Below, one piece after another: positions 18,021 to 25,949 of a stretch of 57,482 nucleotides of DNA (its first letter is position 1; each line of letters opens with the position of its first letter). The stretch comes from Pseudomonadales bacterium (GTDB lineage Bacteria; Patescibacteriota; Microgenomatia; UBA1400; PJMF01), in assembly GCA_020632255.1 (NCBI GenBank), contig JACKFX010000001.1:124734-182215 (forward strand), read 5' to 3'. The position numbers were made by a program, and so were the translations under genes. Below the pieces are notes generated by a model. That model was not told where the DNA came from, did not search any database, and saw only the letters and a list, made by a program, of their open reading frames with translations.

Positions 18021-20963
18021 TTAGCCATGATGCTCGGGAGCATCGATCAATCCACATTTTTTGTATTTCAATCCACTCCCGCAAGGACATGGATCATTAC
18101 GCTTAATCTTAGCTTTTTTAACTCCAGGAGTCGCTTTTTTAGTAGCTTTGGCTGAACCCAGTGCAGATGCTAGGTCTCCAAGTGAGCCTTGAGTCGTTTG
18201 AGGGGCTTTCCTTTGTACAGTGGCTTCGACATTTGAGACAGCAGCAGCCAAGTTTGAGCTCGATTCTGCCTTTTGTTCAACAGCTTGCTTTTGAGGTGCA
18301 TTTTCTACTTTTTGTTGGACACCTCTGAGTTGTACTCGGAAAAGTTTGTTAGCAATGGTGCTTTGAATAGAGTTGATTAAGTCTTCAAACATAGCAAATC
18401 CTTCTTTCTTATATTCCGATAAGACCGTCTTTTTGTCACCACGGAGCCAAATACCTTCACGGAGCGAATCCATGGCATCTAAGTGATCCATCCACTTTTC
18501 ATCGATGGTTGAAAGAGTCACGAGTCTTTCAAGTGTAGATAAATGTTCTTCTCCAAGGGCTTTCTCACGGGACTCATATGCATCAAGAGCAATCTTAATG
18601 AGAGTTTCTTCAAGATCATCAGCAGTAGTGAGAGTTTTGACCAACTGTTGCTGTGAAGCATGATCAAATGGAATGAGTTTGGAGAATTCATTTACTAGTT
18701 CGTGGTATTCTTCGTTTTCGCCTTCTGTTGGAGCATGGAGCGCCGCAATACCGCGAACTTCGTCCTCGATGTAACCGAGAATTTGATCGTGAAGACTTTC
18801 TTGGTCTTCTCCAACATTTTTAGTACTTGCCTGTGTAAGCAATCGACGGCGGCGTTCATAAATAATTTCACGCTGTTTGTTCATGACGTCATCAAACTCT
18901 ACTAAGCGTTTGCGTTGGTCAAAGAAGAAGCCCTCAACTTTTACCTGTGCTGACTCAATCGATTTACTAACCATGCCATGCTCGATAGGCTGGTTTTCAT
19001 CAATTTTGAGCATGTCCATGACTTTAGCAATTTGTTCGCCACCGAAAATGCGCATGATTTCATCTTCGAGTGCCACAAAGAATTGTGACGCACCTGGATC
19101 ACCTTGACGACCAGAACGACCACGAAGCTGGTTATCAATACGGCGTGATTCATGACGCTCGGTGCCCAACACGAAAAGTCCACCAAGTTTCTTAACTTCA
19201 TCATGTTCTTGTTTCCAAGTATCTAGGTCTTTCGCATAGGCTGAAAGTTTATAGTTGAGTGGATTGACTGAAGGCGGCACTTGAACGCCAAACTCCTCCA
19301 GGAGTTCTTTGCGTTCTTTTATAGTGGGTTGAGATGTGGCACGAGTTTTTTTGCGATATTCCTTGAGCTCTGGAGCTGCTCCCCCCAGTACGATATCGAC
19401 TCCACGACCGGCAATGTTTGTTGCCACAGTGATGGCACCCTTTTTACCAGCATCAGAAATTATGAATGCTTCTTTCTCATGGTTTTTTGCATTCAAAATT
19501 TGGTGAGGAATATTTTTACGCTTCAAGAAGCTTGAAATAATTTGGTTATGTTCAATCGATTTGGTACCAATCAAAATTGGTTGACCAGTTGCATGAATTC
19601 GAGCGACTTCCGAACTGATCGCAGAGTACTTGGCTGCAGTGGTTTTATAGACAATGTCGGGCTTATCTTCACGAATAACTGGTTTATTTGTTGGTACAAC
19701 CAGCACTTCGATCCCGTAGATTTGCATGAATTCTTCTGCTTCAGTTTGAGCCGTACCAGTCATACCGCTTAGCTTTTTGTAGAGACGGAAGTAGTTCTGG
19801 ATTGAAATAGTGGCTAGAGTGCGAGATTCGTTCTGAATGGTGGCACCCTCTTTTGCTTCGATAGCCTGATGTAAACCATCAGAGTAGCGACGTCCATACA
19901 TCAATCGACCAGTGTGTTCATCAACAATGATAACCTCACCTTCACGGACAATGTAGTCCTTATCGCGCTTGAAAATTGTTTTTGCCTTAAGTGCAGATTC
20001 AATGTGGTGGATAGTATCAAAACTTTCCTCATAAAGGTTTGAAACACCAAGTTTTTTCTCAATTCGTTTAACACCAAGATCTGTTAAGGTAACTGAGCGA
20101 GCTTTTTCGTCAATTGTGTAGTCCACATCTCTGGCAAGGATGGTGACCATTTTAGCGTAATCGTAGTACTGTTTTGTTGGTGTGGCGTCTGGGGCAGAAA
20201 TAATCAATGGGGTACGAGCTTCATCGATCAAAATTGAGTCTGCTTCGTCAACAATGGTGTAGTGATGCGCGTTATCAAAACGTTGAACCATTTGTTCTTC
20301 TTGTTGCACCATGTTGTCGCGAAGGTAATCAAAACCGAACTCATTATTTGTTCCGTAGGTGATGTCCGCTGCGTAGGCTTCTCGGCGGCTGATATTCTGG
20401 AAGTGCTCAAGACGTTCATCACCGCGTTCTTCACTATCAATTTCAGGGTTATAGAGGCGTGAGTGGTCGTGCACAATTACAGCAATTGAAAGGCCGAGGA
20501 AGTGGTAGACTGGTCCCATCCAACCTGTGCCGAGCTCTGCTAGGTAGTCATTGACGGTAATTAAATGAGCACCCTTGCCAAGTAACGCATTAAGATACAA
20601 AGGAGCGGTAACGGTGAGTGTTTTACCTTCACCTGTACGCTGCTCGGTGATCATACCTTTGTGTAGCGCAATTCCTGCAATCAATTGGACGTCATAGTGA
20701 CGCATACCCAGTACACGACGACTGGCTTCACGTACGGTTGCAAATGCTTCTGGTAAAAGCTCATCCAGCACTTCTGCTTCAGTTTTGCCGTTTTGTATGC
20801 TTTCTGCGATGCGTTTTTTGAACTCCTGCGTTTTTTTAGCAAGTTGGTTGTCGGTGAGTTTTTGAAAATCTGGTTCAATTGTATTAATTTTATCAACAAT
20901 TCCTTGAAAAGAATCAAGATTCTTTTTATTATCGTCAAAGAGGTTGGAAATGAATTTAAACAT
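18021..20963 (-). CDS. secA: Preprotein translocase subunit SecA
   Basis: RTGEGKTL, DEADSILIDEARTPLIIS, GMTGTA, ATNIAGRGVDI, RRIDNQLRGRSGRQGDPG; SEC-C motif RNDPCPCGSGLKYKKC. Confidence 0.99.
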   Translation of the reverse strand: MFKFISNLFDDNKKNLDSFQGIVDKINTIEPDFQKLTDNQLAKKTQEFKKRIAESIQNGKTEAEVLDELLPEAFATVREASRRVLGMRHYDVQLIAGIALHKGMITEQRTGEGKTLTVTAPLYLNALLGKGAHLITVNDYLAELGTGWMGPVYHFLGLSIAVIVHDHSRLYNPEIDSEERGDERLEHFQNISRREAYAADITYGTNNEFGFDYLRDNMVQQEEQMVQRFDNAHHYTIVDEADSILIDEARTPLIISAPDATPTKQYYDYAKMVTILARDVDYTIDEKARSVTLTDLGVKRIEKKLGVSNLYEESFDTIHHIESALKAKTIFKRDKDYIVREGEVIIVDEHTGRLMYGRRYSDGLHQAIEAKEGATIQNESRTLATISIQNYFRLYKKLSGMTGTAQTEAEEFMQIYGIEVLVVPTNKPVIREDKPDIVYKTTAAKYSAISSEVARIHATGQPILIGTKSIEHNQIISSFLKRKNIPHQILNAKNHEKEAFIISDAGKKGAITVATNIAGRGVDIVLGGAAPELKEYRKKTRATSQPTIKERKELLEEFGVQVPPSVNPLNYKLSAYAKDLDTWKQEHDEVKKLGGLFVLGTERHESRRIDNQLRGRSGRQGDPGASQFFVALEDEIMRIFGGEQIAKVMDMLKIDENQPIEHGMVSKSIESAQVKVEGFFFDQRKRLVEFDDVMNKQREIIYERRRRLLTQASTKNVGEDQESLHDQILGYIEDEVRGIAALHAPTEGENEEYHELVNEFSKLIPFDHASQQQLVKTLTTADDLEETLIKIALDAYESREKALGEEHLSTLERLVTLSTIDEKWMDHLDAMDSLREGIWLRGDKKTVLSEYKKEGFAMFEDLINSIQSTIANKLFRVQLRGVQQKVENAPQKQAVEQKAESSSNLAAAVSNVEATVQRKAPQTTQGSLGDLASALGSAKATKKATPGVKKAKIKRNDPCPCGSGLKYKKCGLIDAPEHHG

Positions 20964-21070
20964 ACGATTCTTTCTGATTGTGCGGGTGTGTTCGAAGGGT
21001 AATTATACCCCACTCCGCTGTGCATTTATAGCAGAAACTCGAGTTAAAATGAAGGCCCGGTTGCGTTGAC

Positions 21071-21099
21071 TGTGCGCCAGGCAGTATGCCTGGCGCACA
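21071..21099. repeat. REP-like palindrome just downstream of the serS stop
   Basis: TGTGCGCCAGGCA-GTA-TGCCTGGCGCACA, 13-bp perfect inverted repeat. Confidence 0.85.
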
Positions 21100-21111
21100 T
21101 CCTCACCGAGT

Positions 21112-22389
21112 TCATTTTTTAGTTATGCGATCTGTTCCCACAAAGTCCCGCAGGACTTCTGGTACCACAATACTGCCATCAGCTTGCTGATAGTTTTCAA
21201 TTACCGCAGCTAGTAAACGTGGAGTTGCTGCCATAGTGTTATTTAAGGTGTACACGTGTTTTGTTGTACCATCTTTTGCCTGATACTTAATGCCTAGCCG
21301 GCGTGACTGAAAGTCATTAAAGTAACTGGCTGAGTGGGTTTCGCGATACTTATTTTGGCCTGGGAACCAAGTTTCAATGTCATACTTTTTGCGTTGTCCT
21401 GCCCCCATATCTCCTGTACACATTAACAGAACCTGGTATGAAAGACCGAGGTCTTTTAGAAGTTGTTCGGCAAATGCAGTCATTTTTTCGTGCCACTTCT
21501 GAGTTTCTTCTTCGTCAGCCACTGTGTAGACCACTTGCTCAACTTTATTGAACTGGTGGACACGAATGATACCCTGGGTATCTTTTCCATGTGTTCCGAC
21601 TTCGCGGCGGAAACATGGTGAGATACCTACCATCTTGACTGGCAAGTCGGCTTCTGTTAGGGTTTCCCCCATTCGATATGCTGTGAGTGCAACTTCGGCA
21701 GTTCCTGCTAAAATTTGGCCATCTTGAGTTTTGTAATGGTCCTCTACTCCCCAAGGGAAGTAACCGGTTCCTTCCATGGCATCGTGGTTAACTAAAATTG
21801 GAGCGGTGAATGGCGTAAAGCCCTCTTTAGTCAGCAACTTCATGGCATAGGCAAGAATCGCTTGTTCTAGTAAGACGGCTTCATTCTTGAGAAAATAGCT
21901 TCTAAATCCACCAATGCGGACAGCTCGAACAGTATCGACAAGATCTAACGCTTCCATGAGCTCATGGTGTTGTTTTGGTTCAAAATCGAAGGTGGGCACG
22001 TCACCAACAGTGCGAACAACAACATTACCTTCTTCATCTTCACCAACTGGAACTTCTTCTGCAGGAACATTGGGAATGCTGTACATAAGTGTAGTGAAGT
22101 CTTCTTCGGCTATCTTGAGTTCAGGTTCAATTGCTTGTAGCTGTGTTTTGATATCTTTTCCTTTTGCAATTAACTCAACTGAGGGCTTACCTTGCTGCGC
22201 AACCTCCTGTTTGACTGCATCTGCATTTTGATTAGCTCGCTGACGGAGACCATCTACTTCAACCTGAAGTTTACGGCGTCTTTCATCCACAGCCAATAGT
22301 TCAGCCACAACTGAAACATCGAGCTGTTTATTCTTGCAAGCTGTTTCGACTGTTTTTTGGTTATCTCTGATGAATTGAATATCCAACAT
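21112..22389 (-). CDS. serS: Seryl-tRNA synthetase
   Basis: MLDIQFIR start, N-terminal coiled coil, GTAEV, FRREVGTHGKDTQGIIRVHQFNKVEQ, TLNNT, IENYQQADG. Confidence 0.98.
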   Translation of the reverse strand: MLDIQFIRDNQKTVETACKNKQLDVSVVAELLAVDERRRKLQVEVDGLRQRANQNADAVKQEVAQQGKPSVELIAKGKDIKTQLQAIEPELKIAEEDFTTLMYSIPNVPAEEVPVGEDEEGNVVVRTVGDVPTFDFEPKQHHELMEALDLVDTVRAVRIGGFRSYFLKNEAVLLEQAILAYAMKLLTKEGFTPFTAPILVNHDAMEGTGYFPWGVEDHYKTQDGQILAGTAEVALTAYRMGETLTEADLPVKMVGISPCFRREVGTHGKDTQGIIRVHQFNKVEQVVYTVADEEETQKWHEKMTAFAEQLLKDLGLSYQVLLMCTGDMGAGQRKKYDIETWFPGQNKYRETHSASYFNDFQSRRLGIKYQAKDGTTKHVYTLNNTMAATPRLLAAVIENYQQADGSIVVPEVLRDFVGTDRITKK

Positions 22390-22449
22390 AGCACCCTTTC
22401 TGCACATCTTGTGCAAAGATATTTATACTGTGCTTTGTAGTTGAGGTAC

Positions 22450-22620
22450 AAAAAAACTCTTACCCACGGCCACAAAGCTATGAAGTAAGAGGGTTCAAGT
22501 TTGTGACAAGAACGGTGCCACCTCTTTATACTCATTCCAGCTGTGACGGGCATACCCGGCATGGTTTTTGACCCCATGCAGCATTGGCAGGTGCTAGCTA
22601 CCTCAAGTGCTTTTTTTTAA
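22450..22620 (-). promoter_or_regulatory. Compact T-box riboswitch leader of serS
   Basis: Antiterminator AAGAGG-UGGCACC-GUUC...GAAC-CCUCUU; terminator CUCUUAC...GUAAGAG-U7; stem IIA/B-like CGGGUAUGCCCGUCACAGC; TGCTATACT at 22628-22636. Confidence 0.92.
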
Positions 22621-22785
22621 TAGGAGTAGTATAGCAGAAATTAGTTTTTTGTGAAGTTAGTAGGCAGATCCTTTTTTGTGAGTTTTAGGATGGTCACCAT
22701 ACGCCCCTGAATTAAATAGATCTTCACTTGCTTTTTGTGAAAGTTCATCTTGTATCTGACTTGGTGTAGGAGTTCTTGGAAGAGC

Positions 22786-23157
22786 TCATTTTTTTCCTAC
22801 AGCTAAAGCAGCTTCTTGTTCTGCTATTTCAGCTGGGGCAAGGTATCTTTTACCTCGTTGCCATTTTTCCCAGTCTGATATAGCATTGAAAATTGGATCG
22901 AGTTCTGCTCTCACTCTTTCATCAATTTCCATATGGTACGTGTATTCTGTTGCGCCAAGTAACGCATCTTGCATTGCTACACGGAGCTGTTGAGCTGCAG
23001 CCAATTCTCTTGCTTCATGAGTTTGTTCAACTTGAAGGCGTTTACCAATAAGGCGATGGTCACTCTCTCTATGACGTGGTGACTTTTCCCGATGAATCTG
23101 TTTTCTTGGGGTGAGGTGTACGTCTGTTGCTGGAAAATATTCTCTTGGTCTTTGCAC
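22786..23157 (-). CDS. Hypothetical protein
   Basis: ORF of about 123 aa; GTG at 23157 lies 8 nt after TGCTATTCT; no recognised motif. Confidence 0.55.
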   Translation of the reverse strand: MQRPREYFPATDVHLTPRKQIHREKSPRHRESDHRLIGKRLQVEQTHEARELAAAQQLRVAMQDALLGATEYTYHMEIDERVRAELDPIFNAISDWEKWQRGKRYLAPAEIAEQEAALAVGKK

Positions 23158-23215
23158 TTCATTCAAGAATAGCACCTTTTTATGGTGCTATTCTAGAGTA
23201 ATTTCAAATGTAATT

Positions 23216-25303
23216 TTATTTTGAAAAGACTTCAATCAAAAAGGCAAAATGTTCATCAGCAGTCTTGCCAATTAACTCCAACCCTTCAGCAATGTCTTCT
23301 CTACTTACATTGGCTGCAAAGGCTTTAGCCTTGAGTTTCTTCTTGATAGATTTTGGTTTCATACCTTCAAGACCAGTTGGTCGCATCAGTGCGATAGCAT
23401 TGATAAAACCAGAGATTTCGTCACAGGCAAATAAATATCGATCTAAGGTTGTGATTGGTTCGCGTCCTGTTCTACTTGGTGCGTGCGCAGCAATGGCATC
23501 AAGAAGCGGTTGTGGATACTCTTTCAAAATTTCATTGATGGCTCTGTTTGGATGCTCATCGGGATACATCTCCCAGTCTAGGTCATGCAGGAGGCCGGTT
23601 TGGTACCAGAGTTCTACATCTTCACCAAGTTCCTGTGCATACGCTTCCATAGCTTGAGCTACCATGCGGCAATGTTTTCGTAGGGCTTCATCTTTGATAT
23701 ATTTTTCTACCAAAGTTTCGGCTTGCTCACGTGGAGGGATTTCAACTGATTCAGTTTTAGAAGTTTTTGAGGTTCCTGCATTAATTGAAGTGAGCGGGCG
23801 TAAAGTTGGGAAGGCGATAACTTCTTTAATGCTCCAAGTGTTAGTAAGGAACATAACCAGACGATCTATTCCCATACCAATTCCACCAAGTGGTGGCATA
23901 CCATGTTCCATAGCTTCGAGAAAGTCTTCATCAAGTGGGTGAGCTTGGGTGTCTCCATGACGCATATTAGTTTGCTCATTTTCCCAAATCTTGCGTTGGT
24001 CAACGGCGTCAACGATCTCACTCCAACCGTCGGCAAGTTCTTTTCCGCCGATGTAGGCTTCAAAGCGCTCTGCAAACTCAGGGTTGCTACGGTGTTGTTT
24101 TGAAAGTGGAGAAATATCGCGTGGGTAGTCAACAATCCAGATTGGAGCAATTAAGTGTGGGGTGACTAACTCATCAAAAAGTTCAAACAATGCTTTTCCT
24201 CGAGTGTACTCACTTTTGAGTTCAATTTTGTGCTCTGCCATTAAAGCTTTCACCTCAGCATCACTCAAAGATTCAAAGTCGATGTTGGCGTGCTGTTTGA
24301 GGGCTTCATCCATGCGTACTCGAGGCCATTTACCCCCAATGTCGATGGTTTTTTCACCAACGATGATTTCATAGTTCCCATAAAGCTTATGTGCCAGGTG
24401 TTTAACTAATGCTTCAGCAACATTCATTATTCGAGTGTAGTCAGCATAAGATTCGTACCATTCAATCATGGTGAATTCAGGTTGGTGGGTTTGGTCAATT
24501 CCCTCATTTCGAAAGTTACGTGCAATCTCAAAGACTCTATCGTATCCACCCACAATCAGCCGTTTTAGATAAAGCTCTGGGGCGATACGAAGGTAAAAAT
24601 CACTATCAAGCGCATCCATGTGGGTAGTAAATGGTGTTGCATTGGTTCCACCATAAAGTGGTTGGAGAATTGGAGTTTCAACCTCCACAAAGTCATGGCT
24701 ATCCTGCAGGAAACGTCGAATTTCTTTTTCAATCAGCCAACGAGCGTCCAAGACACGTTTGGTTTCTGGATTAATGAGCATATCTAGATACCGTTTTCTG
24801 AAACGAACCTCTTTACTGTCTGCAGCATTAAAGGCAGTTGGAATTGGGCGAAGAGCTTTTGAGAGTAAGGTGATTTCTTTAGCAAGAATAGTAATTTCAC
24901 CAGTCCTTGTGGTGATAACAGTGCCTGTCACCCCGAGGTAATCTCCGCGGTCAGTGAGGTTTTTGAGCCAGTCAAAGCTATTTTCAGTAATTTCTCCTTG
25001 TCTGACCATGACTTGAATGTTGGTGGTTGAGTCTTGGAGATCTGCAAAGATTACTTTTCCATGCGCCCGAACAGACATAATCCGTCCTGCAGTGGTCACT
25101 TCTTGGTCCATCATTTCACGAACTTCAGCAATAGTGTTTTGTTTATCGAAAAAATGAGGGTGAACGTTAATGCCCAGCCCTTCGAGCTGAGCACGTTTTT
25201 CTTTTTTGGCTTGAATTGTTTCGTCCATTCGTGACATACCGGCAGTCCTTCTTGAGTTTCGTACTTGGTCTTTTTGGTTATTTTCTGCGTTTTGATTATA
25301 CAT
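23216..25303 (-). CDS. lysS: Class II lysyl-tRNA synthetase fused to a C-terminal HD-domain hydrolase
   Basis: OB domain (AGRIMSVRAHGK), FVEVETP, YLRIAPELYLKRL, FRNEG..THQPEFT, GIGMGIDRL; then about 170 aa with KHCRMV...GLLHDLD. Start may be 25237. Confidence 0.95.
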   Translation of the reverse strand: MYNQNAENNQKDQVRNSRRTAGMSRMDETIQAKKEKRAQLEGLGINVHPHFFDKQNTIAEVREMMDQEVTTAGRIMSVRAHGKVIFADLQDSTTNIQVMVRQGEITENSFDWLKNLTDRGDYLGVTGTVITTRTGEITILAKEITLLSKALRPIPTAFNAADSKEVRFRKRYLDMLINPETKRVLDARWLIEKEIRRFLQDSHDFVEVETPILQPLYGGTNATPFTTHMDALDSDFYLRIAPELYLKRLIVGGYDRVFEIARNFRNEGIDQTHQPEFTMIEWYESYADYTRIMNVAEALVKHLAHKLYGNYEIIVGEKTIDIGGKWPRVRMDEALKQHANIDFESLSDAEVKALMAEHKIELKSEYTRGKALFELFDELVTPHLIAPIWIVDYPRDISPLSKQHRSNPEFAERFEAYIGGKELADGWSEIVDAVDQRKIWENEQTNMRHGDTQAHPLDEDFLEAMEHGMPPLGGIGMGIDRLVMFLTNTWSIKEVIAFPTLRPLTSINAGTSKTSKTESVEIPPREQAETLVEKYIKDEALRKHCRMVAQAMEAYAQELGEDVELWYQTGLLHDLDWEMYPDEHPNRAINEILKEYPQPLLDAIAAHAPSRTGREPITTLDRYLFACDEISGFINAIALMRPTGLEGMKPKSIKKKLKAKAFAANVSREDIAEGLELIGKTADEHFAFLIEVFSK

Positions 25304-25416
25304 GATTTATTTTTTATCCTCTTGGCCAATTTCAATTTGTGTTGATGTATGTGTGATTTGTGTGGTATTTGGCATTGGTTTTTCTTTTTTTTGGGTCTAA
25401 TCTACTAAATGGCATT

Positions 25417-25443
25417 AAAAAACCCCGCTGTGTGCGGGGTTTT
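25417..25443. terminator. Bidirectional terminator-like hairpin after greA
   Basis: AAAAAA-CCCCGC-TGTGT-GCGGGG-TTTT. Confidence 0.8.
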
Positions 25444-25460
25444 GATTTTATGTTAAGGTA

Positions 25461-25949
25461 TTATTTTATTTCTACAATTCTGTATTCAATCTCACCCGCT
25501 GGAGCATTAAACACAGCCTTATCACCCTTCTTCTTACCAACAAGGGCTTCTCCTAACGGTGATCCGACGGATATTTTACCTTCTGTTGGGTTTGCTTCAA
25601 ACTCACCAACTACATAGAGTGTTTTTTTGTCTTTTGAGCCTTTTTTGCTGACGACAACTGTTGAACCAACTCCAATAGTGCTTTTGCTTCGAGTGTTTTT
25701 GACGACGACTGAGCGGGCAATGATGCCTTCAATCTCTTCTATTCTGGTTTCAATAAACTCTTGCTCTTCTTTTGCGCTGTGGTATTCGGCGTTTTCAGAG
25801 AGATCGCCGTACTCACGAGCTTTTGCTACACGTTTAATAACGGCGACGAGTTTTTGTTCTTTGAGTTCTGACAACTCTTGTGTGAGTTCATCGAGACCCT
25901 CTTTGGTAAGTTCAATTTGGTTTGGTTTGTCATTCTTAGTCATTGACAT
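25461..25949 (-). CDS. greA: Transcription elongation factor GreA
   Basis: AREYGDLSENAEYHSAKEEQ, ISVGSPLGEAL. Confidence 0.96.
   Translation of the reverse strand: MSMTKNDKPNQIELTKEGLDELTQELSELKEQKLVAVIKRVAKAREYGDLSENAEYHSAKEEQEFIETRIEEIEGIIARSVVVKNTRSKSTIGVGSTVVVSKKGSKDKKTLYVVGEFEANPTEGKISVGSPLGEALVGKKKGDKAVFNAPAGEIEYRIVEIK

Follow-up and report, generated by a model that had tools for sequence, protein, structure and literature searches.

A Patescibacteria (CPR) bacterium from wastewater encodes one polypeptide that is composed of a complete, selected class II lysyl-tRNA synthetase (LysRS), a flexible linker of ~19 aa, and a complete dinuclear-type HD module. The HD module is a member of a family of ~176 aa that is strongly conserved and occurs mostly as standalone proteins, and the gene of this family is linked to LysRS of class I no less tightly than to class II. 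The chances seem evenly balanced that this HD family is a previously unrecognised partner of LysRS of both classes, being either a new family of dinucleoside-polyphosphate hydrolases or a new tRNA(Lys)/Lys-tRNA phosphoesterase. A hydrolase that is repeatedly fused to LysRS, and that follows even its non-homologous class I replacement, is a promising lead to a LysRS-coupled activity.

Domain architecture of the fusion protein

The window, which is the whole analysed stretch of 57,482 nucleotides, carries a stop-free open reading frame (ORF) for LysRS, linker, and HD domain on its reverse strand (23216..25303 (-)). The ORF comprises 695 aa, of which the N-terminal 22 are probably not translated, and ends with a TAA stop codon at 23216-23218 (-). 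Codons 1 to 22 show a neutral dN/dS of 0.92, versus 0.04 for LysRS, and residue 1 of the homologues aligns with residue 23 of the query; the real start is therefore probably the ATG at 25237 (M23; 25235..25237 (-)), which has an AAGGA upstream and results in a protein of 673 aa. The promoter and terminator scan gave nothing over background of relevance to the fusion.

The LysRS half is a bona fide class II LysRS (LysS) with an OB-fold anticodon-binding domain (residues 69 to 147; 24863..25099 (-); PF01336, 61.4 bits) and a class II aminoacyl-tRNA synthetase catalytic core (residues 164 to 501; 23801..24814 (-); PF00152, 292 bits), and it scores above the cut-offs of NF001756 (593.1 bits, cut-off 468) and TIGR00499 (523.4 bits, cut-off 427.6). 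An identity as LysX, the LysRS-MprF fusion (NF002821), was rejected: at 513.5 bits the protein falls short of the cut-off (742), the match covers the LysRS half only (model positions 598-1100), and the protein has no MprF domain.

The C-terminal LysRS motif EVIAFPTLRP (residues 494 to 503) runs without a stop into the linker LTSINAGTSKTSKTESVEI (residues 504 to 522; 23738..23794 (-)), which is of low complexity and predicted to be disordered (pLDDT <50), and from there into the HD(IG) metallo-hydrolase module (residues 523 to 695; 23219..23737 (-)). The first-pass annotation, made from the letters alone, had described this in-frame fusion behind the same motif, and the matches of LysRS and HD models above their cut-offs bear it out; the interval 23216-23780 takes in the HD module with its stop codon, as well as the greater part of the linker. 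The module has 173 aa and is predicted to be all-helical with high confidence (AF2 pLDDT 95.4, pTM 0.91), while the full-length model folds into two confident modules joined by the disordered linker (pTM 0.68).

Recurrence of the fusion

The first-pass annotation had named absence from reads or relatives as a reason to give up the fusion, and the fusion was found in both. Its sequence is present in runs of many independent wastewater and activated-sludge studies, and contigs assembled separately in four studies span positions 23100-24300 with 0 substitutions and 0 gaps. The same in-frame LysRS-HD fusion is encoded in eight other genomes, where the linkers are unrelated. Among the nearest 150 LysRS cluster representatives, 29 have the HD domain. 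One of these (P0129) has it at the N-terminus, which implies at least two independent fusion events; the genomic context of this N-terminal-HD fusion was uninformative. The linkers of the relatives range from 18 to 43 aa and are unrelated, with neither length nor sequence being conserved; compared with one relative (L002), the linker has 53% identity and contains indels.

The close homologues of the HD domain are mostly standalone proteins, which would be compatible with an error in assembly or sequencing, or with a stop codon that was lost recently and without function. The junction is, however, identical across the independent assemblies of four studies, the further in-frame fusions have diverged linkers, and the dN/dS of the HD part is 0.07, so that we regard an artefact or a trivial stop-codon loss as practically ruled out. 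The dN/dS of 0.074 for the HD module versus 0.041 for LysRS places purifying selection on the HD module on par with that on LysRS.

Conservation of the HD module and its predicted metal site

HMM classification, which had been proposed as a check, assigns the module, well beyond what chance would give, to the HD superfamily (PF01966; cut-off 22, 35.7 to 38.8 bits reached; E values 1e-8 to 1e-9) and to HDIG (TIGR00277; 29.9 to 32.6 bits versus a cut-off of 27.6), the latter being matched by 37/37 family members. The Pfam models HD_4 (RelA/SpoT, PF13328), HD_3 (YfbR-type), HD-GYP, and 7TM-HD gave no match at E <= 1, and with these subfamily models unmatched and the fold similarity being generic, membership of the small alarmone hydrolase/RelA-SpoT, YfbR-type, HD-GYP, and PgpH groups was rejected.

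Alignment with the ligands of YqeK predicts six ligands of a dinuclear metal site, spanning 23420..23674 (-): H544 in KHCRMV (23672-23674 (-)), the dyad H573-D574 in LLHDLD (23582-23587 (-)), H584 in EHPN (23552-23554 (-)), H607 in AHAP (23483-23485 (-)), and D628 in ACDE (23420-23422 (-)). KHCRMV, LLHDLD, AHAP, and ACDE are present as the first-pass annotation had described them, EHPN having been missed. In the sequence all catalytic residues are intact, and the six ligands are invariant in both family alignments, the narrower A1 and the broader A2. The extended six-residue motif H...HD...H...H...D is diagnostic of a dinuclear HD site (PMC8177086), and the module carries this motif, so a dinuclear metal site is predicted. 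All ligands are kept in 48 of the 49 fused modules; a seeming loss of the H584 equivalent in 9 divergent fusions was traced to a hmmalign loop artefact.

The family alignments also reveal an invariant basic motif, KPKSIKKKLKAKAFAANVSR (residues 651 to 668; 23300..23353 (-)). One fused homologue (P0155) has lost the HD dyad and kept the basic motif, with F662, A663, and R668 being invariant even there, a hint that the motif may serve binding apart from catalysis.

Relation to YqeK and other HD proteins

The closest characterised proteins by profile and fold are the YqeK Ap4A hydrolases, the resemblance being weak and found mainly in the metal-binding core. In a profile search of the PDB with A2, the leading hits are five structures of YqeK (8jja, E = 1.9e-5), with PgpH reaching E = 0.023; the same search with the single sequence or a narrow profile gave nothing significant, YqeK being reached only with A2. 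Foldseek against the PDB confirms the HD fold and lists YqeK at ranks 1-4, 8, 12, and 13, with E values of 6e-3 or worse and TM-scores of ~0.5; no match has an E value of <1e-3. Similar TM-scores are found for PgpH (0.58), small alarmone hydrolases (0.55), and YpgQ (0.53) (E >0.1). Since TM-scores of ~0.5 extend across several HD subfamilies, the fold does not assign a substrate.

The HMMER pairing with 8jja, 2ogi, and 8wmy aligns H22, H51, D52, H62, H85, and D106 of the domain with the six YqeK ligands, which are H29, H58, D59, H91, H117, and D135 in Streptococcus pyogenes YqeK (PMC11857287). Three residues past the HD dyad, YqeK has the essential Lys62 (HDxxK); in the S. pyogenes enzyme, Ap4A cleavage drops strongly when this Lys is mutated (PMC11857287). 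The corresponding position here is W577 (HDLDW), and the 49 fused modules have W (34), Y (7), F (4), R (2), or T (1). No profile match extends the alignment with YqeK into the C-terminal ~65 residues of the module; the C-terminal nucleotide-binding residues of YqeK are Leu172, Phe180, and Thr183 (PMC11857287). The YqeK equivalog model TIGR00488 does not match the fusion protein at E <= 1 and is touched by 2/37 HD family members (E = 0.002). With the equivalog model failing, Trp in place of Lys62, and a different C-terminal half, we rejected membership of YqeK (COG1713, TIGR00488), which the first-pass annotation had rightly refrained from claiming.

Weak NCBIfam matches to PRK07152 and DVU_1551 involve the HD halves of nucleotidyltransferase-HD fusions, and the HD region of RNase Y is weakly matched by 15/37 HD family members. 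Like the matches to PRK12703 (tRNA Cm56 methyltransferase-HD) and TIGR00295, they cover the generic HDIG core only and were discarded as functional clues.

Gene linkage to LysRS

In 22 of the 23 Patescibacteria loci, the HD domain is fused to class II LysRS or encoded directly downstream of LysRS. The LysRS beside an unfused HD gene is often the non-homologous class I enzyme: the HD domain is fused if LysRS is class II, and its gene lies directly downstream or overlaps if LysRS is class I or bears a B3_4 domain, with gaps of -8 to +10 nt. The shared Patescibacteria block consists of ATP synthase, GreA, LysRS, HD, SerRS, and SecA genes. In the window, greA (25461..25949 (-)) lies upstream of the LysRS gene and serS (seryl-tRNA synthetase; 21112..22416 (-)) lies downstream of the HD gene; both neighbours are conserved at these places in Patescibacteria. 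This conserved block could in part be inherited synteny. A Metallophos gene between serS and secA in two loci (L084 and L088) was considered as ApaH and rejected, being YfcE-like.

An HD gene near LysRS was found in 0 of the 65 loci from other phyla. The standalone gene is widespread without aminoacyl-tRNA synthetase (aaRS) linkage in Gemmatimonadota, Balneolales, and Ignavibacteria, and it adjoins endonuclease III in 31 Gemmatimonadota loci; its non-CPR neighbours (endonuclease III, TM2-domain protein, TonB receptor, and CarB) show no coherent functional theme. That the HD domain is normally standalone, and that it tracks class I LysRS too, are features beyond those in the first-pass annotation.

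Other LysRS appendages in the relatives are B3_4 (11+2), tRNA_bind, and LPG_synthase_C (seven among the 150 representatives), and one protein (P0159) has the layout LysRS-tRNA_bind-B3_4-HD. One fusion relative (P0233) contains an inserted NUDIX domain alongside HD; this module, like a NUDIX neighbour, matches generic Nudix models only. LysRS in CPR bacteria thus appears to be a hub for added modules, including HD, B3_4, DUF2000, tRNA_bind, and NUDIX.

Possible functions of the HD module

LysRS is the classic source of Ap4A, its class II form being a major one, and the signalling role of Ap4A is still debated. Lysine activation to Lys-AMP by class I LysRS requires bound tRNA, and class I LysRS is not known as an Ap4A producer; a literature search for Ap4A production by class I LysRS found no paper. 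Ap4A has been reviewed previously (PMC10148737). Many phyla lack the known bacterial Ap4A erasers (ApaH, YqeK, and Nudix) or have none assigned, and a literature search for the LysRS-HD fusion or for Ap4A in Patescibacteria returned nothing relevant.

By analogy with NadD-YqeK, the HD module may be a tethered hydrolase of dinucleoside polyphosphates or other LysRS side-products, the reading that we favour, if tentatively and at somewhat less than even chances. The first-pass annotation had suggested a synthetase with a built-in eraser of dinucleoside polyphosphates, and this idea gains real, if indirect, support from YqeK as the nearest characterised relative in profile and fold, from the six aligned metal ligands, and from the published NadD-YqeK fusion, which cleans up after its partner in just this way (PMC9426524). 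The module would be a YqeK-related phosphoanhydride hydrolase that destroys the adenylyl-transfer side-products of LysRS at their source, with the main targets being Ap4A, Ap3A, and Ap4N, formed by attack of ATP, ADP, or NTP on enzyme-bound Lys-AMP. The nucleophile that attacks a phosphate of the chain would be a water or hydroxide shared by the two metals that H544, H573, D574, H584, H607, and D628 hold. Binding of the nucleotide or polyphosphate would fall to the invariant basic K-x-KK...F-A...R segment, and the tether or translational coupling would keep hydrolase and synthetase equimolar and near each other. This arrangement would parallel the NadD-fused YqeK domain, which clears the erroneous dinucleotides of NadD. 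Against an Ap4A hydrolase stand the weakness of the resemblance to YqeK, with PgpH, small alarmone hydrolases, and YpgQ about equally close in TM-score, the lack of LysRS linkage in the 65 loci outside Patescibacteria, the basic motif kept by the dyad-less P0155, the replacement of YqeK Lys62 by Trp or another aromatic residue, the unaligned adenine-binding C-terminal residues of YqeK, and the other LysRS appendages (B3_4, tRNA_bind, and LPG_synthase_C), which act on tRNA or aminoacyl-tRNA. Reading the module as specific for Ap4A only is further weakened by the equal linkage to class I LysRS, which activates lysine only with tRNA.

The main rival is a module directed at tRNA(Lys), with the HD domain acting on or holding the tRNA substrate of LysRS, either as a 3'-end repair or licensing phosphoesterase that removes a 2',3'-cyclic phosphate or 3'-phosphate, like the HD domain of the CCA-adding enzyme, or as a quality-control partner of the B3_4 editing-type domain. 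The two LysRS classes share tRNA(Lys) and the reaction, not the fold, and the linkage is independent of class. The tRNA-end phosphoesterase option, which the first-pass annotation had also raised, stays alive because the commonest other appendages, including those of the LysX type, handle tRNA or aminoacyl-tRNA, with P0159 combining several of them with HD; the lysine-rich motif persists in P0155 despite the lost dyad, an HD site of the dinuclear kind is typical of a phosphodiesterase or nuclease (PMC8177086), in line with the weak RNase Y matches, and the HD domain of bacterial GlyRS-beta sits at the tRNA acceptor arm (PMC8464048). The profile and fold neighbours are nevertheless small-nucleotide hydrolases (YqeK) and not the HD domains of CCA enzymes or GlyRS-beta, the family is widespread without aaRS linkage, the catalytic site is kept in nearly all fused copies, unlike that of the degenerate GlyRS-beta HD, and docking of the tRNA in a fixed geometry is hard to reconcile with a linker that is flexible and not conserved, which leaves a tRNA(Lys)-directed role rather unlikely. 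Also unlikely, in our estimate, is a hydrolase of another small molecule whose LysRS link reflects proofreading or co-expression instead of Ap4A removal; candidate substrates would be lysyl- or non-cognate aminoacyl-adenylates, 8-oxo-GTP or dNTP in nucleotide-pool sanitising, as reported for the Syn3A YqeK domain, (p)ppGpp, pApA, and cyclic dinucleotides. Small alarmone hydrolases, PgpH, and YpgQ are level with YqeK in TM-score, the pocket residues differ from those of YqeK, so the substrate may differ too, and in non-CPR lineages the gene has a general housekeeping character, lying for example beside endonuclease III. The Syn3A YqeK domain is itself promiscuous, with NaCD, NaUD, and 8-oxo-GTP as substrates (PMC9426524). 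Such a hydrolase finds no match among the HD_4, HD_3, HD-GYP, and 7TM-HD models, and co-expression alone leaves unexplained the repeated fusion in two orders and the 1-10 nt or overlapping spacing with either LysRS class. The six-ligand H..HD..H..H..D motif is common to all known HD oxygenases, and the Arg before the first His that is typical of phosphohydrolases (PMC8177086) is not conserved, domain position 20 being R/K/I/L/V/Q. A diiron HD oxygenase with MIOX/PhnZ/TmpB-like chemistry on lysine or a lysine-derived compound is still very improbable, with none among the best 50 fold matches or the profile matches, a K-rich motif that fits a phosphate-bearing ligand, and no genomic link to lysine metabolism.

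If the module hydrolyses dinucleoside polyphosphates, its family would stand beside ApaH, YqeK, and Nudix, LysRS would be a self-limiting alarmone source in CPR, and the missing Ap4A hydrolase slot would be filled in several other phyla; with Ap4A itself as the substrate, a new hydrolase family would provide metabolite damage control inside a synthetase. A tRNA(Lys)/Lys-tRNA phosphoesterase would instead represent a new translation quality-control step without known counterpart. With ~176 aa, solubility, and a high-confidence structure prediction, the HD family is easy to test.

Comparison with known systems

ApaH and the Nudix Ap4A hydrolases have the role that is proposed here, the clearing of LysRS-derived dinucleoside polyphosphates, but their folds (metallophosphatase and Nudix) are unrelated to the HD module, with no sequence relationship. 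LysX is likewise a class II LysRS fused to an enzyme that uses the product of the LysRS reaction; unlike LysRS-HD, it is membrane-bound and lysinylates phosphatidylglycerol from Lys-tRNA.

An HD fold is also built into tRNA-charging and tRNA-maturing enzymes in GlyRS-beta and the class II CCA-adding enzymes, and the GlyRS-beta structure 7lu4 appears at rank 22 of the fold list. In GlyRS-beta the HD dyad has degenerated to Ser-Lys, and the domain binds the tRNA acceptor arm as a rigid, integral part of the enzyme (PMC8464048), whereas LysRS-HD has an intact dyad and ligands, a disordered tether, and freestanding family members. A degenerate, tRNA-binding HD domain of the GlyRS-beta type was rejected, given the dyad intact in 48/49 fused modules, the disordered linker, and the full-length pTM of 0.68.

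YqeK, the symmetrical Ap4A hydrolase of Firmicutes (PDB 2o08, 2ogi, 3ccg, 8jja, and 8wmy), is alike in size (~175-195 aa) and in its all-helical HD fold, and it likewise occurs fused to or clustered with an adenylyl-transfer enzyme. It has ~15-22% identity to the LysRS-HD module, its partner is NadD where that of the HD family is LysRS, and the K-x-KK...FA...R motif in the C-terminal third of the HD module is unaligned with YqeK Leu172, Phe180, and Thr183. The best functional analogy is NadD-YqeK of mycoplasmas (JCVISYN3A_0380; PMC9426524), where an HD diphosphatase hydrolyses the unwanted dinucleotides of its own partner and where the gene pair is, as with LysRS-HD, fused or tightly clustered depending on the lineage. 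The two systems differ in the partner enzyme and the HD subfamily, and the activity that is demonstrated for NadD-YqeK is predicted for LysRS-HD.

The LysRS-HD fusion gene

The fusion of class II lysyl-tRNA synthetase (LysRS) and HD module is encoded by a 695-codon ORF (23216..25303, minus strand). Past the C-terminal LysRS motif KEVIAFPTLRP, whose last residue is 503, the reading frame stays open across LTSINAGTSKTSKTESVEI and enters an HD domain with KHCRMV, LLHDLD, EHPN, AHAP, and ACDE all present. Pfam places a tRNA_anti-codon domain at residues 69-147, a tRNA-synt_2 domain at 164-501, and an HD domain at 543-631 (35.7 bits, cut-off 22), and the protein exceeds the NCBIfam cut-offs for lysine--tRNA ligase NF001756 (593 bits, cut-off 468), TIGR00499 (523 bits, cut-off 427.6), and HDIG TIGR00277 (29.9 bits, cut-off 27.6). 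The in-frame fusion and coordinates given in the first-pass annotation (an HD hydrolase on LysRS at 23216-23780) are therefore correct. The junction sequence is complete in runs of many separate wastewater and activated-sludge studies, and independently assembled contigs from four studies span 23100-24300 with 0 substitutions and 0 gaps. The junction is real DNA, and an artefact is excluded; the absence from reads or relatives that had been raised as grounds for doubt is not what we find, the junction occurring in many runs and the fusion being recurrent. The stretch 23500-24100 is found again, at a word identity of 100%, in metagenomes of wastewater and activated sludge from many studies between 2015 and 2025, which indicates that the organism belongs to a widespread wastewater-associated Pacebacteria-like lineage.

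A codon-level comparison was made with the closest relative, which comes from a Candidatus Pacebacteria MAG (locus L002). Identity is 86% for LysRS and 85% for the HD module, with dN/dS values of 0.041 and 0.074, respectively, and the linker is rich in indels with only 53% identity. Codons 1-22 (25238-25303, minus strand) have a dN/dS of 0.92, as in neutral evolution, homologues begin at M23, and a Shine-Dalgarno-like AAGGA precedes the M23 ATG; translation therefore probably begins at that ATG (25237), giving a protein of 673 aa. The AlphaFold model of the HD module alone is all-helical (pLDDT 95.4, pTM 0.91). In the full-length model (pTM 0.68), both modules exceed a pLDDT of 90 and the linker falls below 50, confidence scores that suggest two folded modules joined by a flexible tether.

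A hairpin at 25419-25443, between greA and the fusion gene, is a perfect 10-bp GC-rich palindrome (AAAACCCCGC-TGTGT-GCGGGGTTTT) and is terminator-like on both strands. In most relatives serS directly follows the HD gene, whereas in the window a 129-aa ORF with a GTG start (22786-23175, minus strand) intervenes; Pfam gives no match for it, its counterpart in L002 is weak (35% identity across 74 aa), and an inverted repeat at about 23167-23195 overlaps its start.

Recurrence of the fusion

In the genome scan, wherever class II lysS immediately precedes the HD gene, the two form a single stop-free frame, at all loci but one. The fused loci (L001, L002, L004, L006, L008, L009, L010, and L017) have low-complexity linkers of 18-43 aa with unrelated sequences, and in the sole unfused case, in WWE3 (L037), a stop and 294 nt separate the two genes. 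When 1.84 billion cluster representatives were searched by full-length phmmer, the 150 top LysRS relatives included 29 with the HD family, at the C-terminus in most. Representative P0129 has the reverse order, with HD at the N-terminus (2-171) followed by class II LysRS (221-713), and occurs on several contigs from different samples (L082:5116-7263, L083:4327-6474), where neighbouring genes have no Pfam matches. With HD N-terminal in P0129 and C-terminal in most others, at least two independent fusion events occurred, and the annotation of P0137 indicates that several CPR lineages have the architecture. A search with sequence across the junction yielded about 15 more fused proteins, for the most part fragments, with names including “lysyl-tRNA synthetase class 2” and “predicted hydrolase (HD superfamily)”.

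The metal ligands are complete in 48 of 49 fused HD modules. The sole loss is in P0155 (671 aa; HD region 511-664), where GLLHD has become GRASV and the invariant K-x-KK...F-A...R motif is retained despite the lost HD dyad; this protein may be a catalytically dead, binding-only derivative.

Linkage of the HD gene to LysRS of either class

The Patescibacteria loci share with the window the gene block ATP synthase-GreA-LysRS-HD-SerRS-SecA. Immediately upstream of the standalone HD gene is class I LysRS (PF01921, 268 bits), either directly, with gaps of 3-10 nt (L003, L005, L019, L023), or with one or two small genes between (L007, L018). On long contigs, six more standalone HD genes (L084-L089), which overlap LysRS by up to 8 nt or lie up to 9 nt from it, adjoin class I LysRS (L084, L085, L088), class I LysRS-B3_4 (L086, L087), or class II LysRS-B3_4 (L089). 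Counting the window, and assigning CPR-type contigs labelled Vitreimonas or Pseudomonadales to Patescibacteria as inferred from synteny and sequence identity, the HD gene is fused or linked to LysRS in 22 of 23 Patescibacteria loci: 9 class II fusions, 2 class II-adjacent, 9 directly class I-adjacent, and 2 near class I. The sole exception is L011 (Saccharibacteria). At the loci from other phyla, LysRS of either class or SerRS lies within 6 kb of the HD gene in 0 of 65.

Five of the loci, L003 (DASPLQ010000012.1, ‘Vitreimonas sp.’) and L004, L009, L017, and L019 (‘uncultured Pseudomonadales’), have Patescibacteria-type synteny despite proteobacterial labels and share 58-74% identity with the window HD domain; these MAG labels are probably wrong. 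Closely related Patescibacteria carry class I or class II LysRS in the same slot of the GreA-LysRS-HD-SerRS-SecA block (L002-L010, L017-L019, L023, and L084-L089 compared with window 18021-25949), which looks like in-situ displacement of one class by the other. Between serS and secA, two loci encode a 233-aa metallophosphoesterase (L084:5822-6520, L088:5822-6523), for which an ApaH identity was rejected; it is YfcE-like (45.6 bits, under the cut-off of 56.25). In 31 Gemmatimonadota/Longimicrobiales loci (L033-L079), an endonuclease III (nth)-like gene lies about 100 nt upstream of the standalone HD gene on the same strand, and in Balneolaceae a gene for a small TM2-domain protein precedes it.

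Relation to YqeK and other HD families

The HD module as sole query yields 2670 homologues. The best 120 of these (64-79% identity) are nearly all standalone proteins of 173-185 aa from Patescibacteria (Pacebacteria, Woesebacteria, Paceibacterota), named only “HDIG domain-containing protein”, and at 44-61% identity the family includes Balneolales, Gemmatimonadota/Longimicrobiales, Ignavibacteria, Kryptoniota, and other Bacteroidota. Conservation is unusually high, with H22, H51-D52, W55-E56, H62-P63-N64, H85, R89-T90, D106-E107, R119-P120, K133-K134, F140-A141, and R146 among the invariant residues (domain numbering; add 522 for protein numbering).

No close sequence relative was found among solved structures. 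The five best PDB matches of a broadened, 37-sequence family profile are all YqeK-type symmetrical Ap4A hydrolases (8jja, E = 1.9e-5; 2ogi; 8wmy; 2o08; 3ccg), followed by PgpH. Foldseek with the confident HD model also ranks YqeK structures first (8jk9, 8jkp, 8jja, 2o08; later 3ccg, 2ogi), with E-values all 6e-3 or worse and TM about 0.5; TM-scores put PgpH (0.58), small alarmone hydrolases (0.55), and YpgQ (0.53) just as close. HMMER aligns H22, H51, D52, H62, H85, and D106 to H29, H58, D59, H91, H117, and D135, the six residues that bind metal in S. pyogenes YqeK (PMC11857287), and a dinuclear site is diagnosed by the extended H..HD..H..H..D motif (PMC8177086). YqeK membership is nevertheless rejected, because the YqeK model TIGR00488 does not match the window protein (and faintly matches 2 of the 37 family members), the HDxxK lysine needed for Ap4A cleavage in YqeK (Lys62) is replaced by Trp or another aromatic, and no profile hit aligns the C-terminal third, where the invariant basic motif lies, to the YqeK nucleotide-binding residues. 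This bears out the caution of the first-pass annotation, which claimed no membership. The description that fits the family best is that of an uncharacterised YqeK sister in the HDIG group, and it has weak NCBIfam matches to the HD halves of the nucleotidyltransferase-HD fusions PRK07152 and DVU_1551.

Other LysRS modules

In Patescibacteria, LysRS of both classes often carries at its C-terminus a B3_4 domain, which has the fold of the editing domain in PheRS-beta (P0123 and P0131; class I, L003:3586-5976, L086:1600-3999, and L087:1610-3991; class II, L089:1807-3999). The domain is found in 11 of 36 long LysRS representatives without HD, suggesting an unreported editing module for tRNA(Lys). 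Further architectures are LysRS-tRNA_bind-B3_4-HD (P0159, 1072 aa), LysRS-NUDIX-HD (P0233, 935 aa), and LysRS-DUF2000-HD (P0198, 863 aa), besides which DUF2000 is appended to 8 other LysRS representatives. In these lineages, LysRS seems to serve as a hub to which accessory modules attach.

Possible function of the HD module

LysRS and a selected, dinuclear-type HD enzyme, both complete, share one chain, the fusion is repeated in both orders, and linkage to the LysRS gene is near-obligatory in Patescibacteria. We tentatively propose that the HD module hydrolyses a phosphoanhydride in a LysRS side-product, most likely Ap4A, Ap3A, or Ap4N, which would arise through attack on Lys-AMP by ATP, ADP, or NTP. 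Of the earlier suggestion that the synthetase carries its own eraser of dinucleoside polyphosphates, the tethered HD enzyme with all ligands and YqeK as its nearest characterised relative stands, and the substrate is a possible assignment, short of an even chance.

The main rival is that the module acts on tRNA(Lys), as a phosphoesterase or in quality control; it appears unlikely but draws on several observations. The HD gene is linked to class I LysRS no less tightly than to class II; class I LysRS requires tRNA for lysine activation and is not known as an Ap4A source, and no paper on this was found in the literature searched. The other frequent LysRS appendages among the 150 best relatives act on tRNA or aminoacyl-tRNA (B3_4, 11, plus 2 with HD; DUF2000, 8, plus 1 with HD; LPG_synthase_C, 7; tRNA_bind, 2), P0159 combines tRNA_bind and B3_4 with HD, and in P0155 the basic motif persists although the catalytic dyad is lost. 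An HD fold is already known at the tRNA acceptor arm in bacterial GlyRS-beta, a precedent in which the active site is dead (PMC8464048). Hydrolysis of aminoacyl-adenylates or other nucleotides is improbable, and an HD oxygenase highly so.

Neither the LysRS-HD fusion nor the function of this HD family is described in the literature searched, and the names in public records go no further than lysine--tRNA ligase or HD/HDIG protein. What is new, and can be tested directly, is how widely the fusion occurs and that the linkage to LysRS holds for either class. The components come from known superfamilies, and the logic of the proposed side-product hydrolase has a precedent, which is also the strongest analogy, in the mycoplasma NadD-YqeK fusion, where the HD domain hydrolyses erroneous dinucleotides of its adenylyltransferase partner (PMC9426524).
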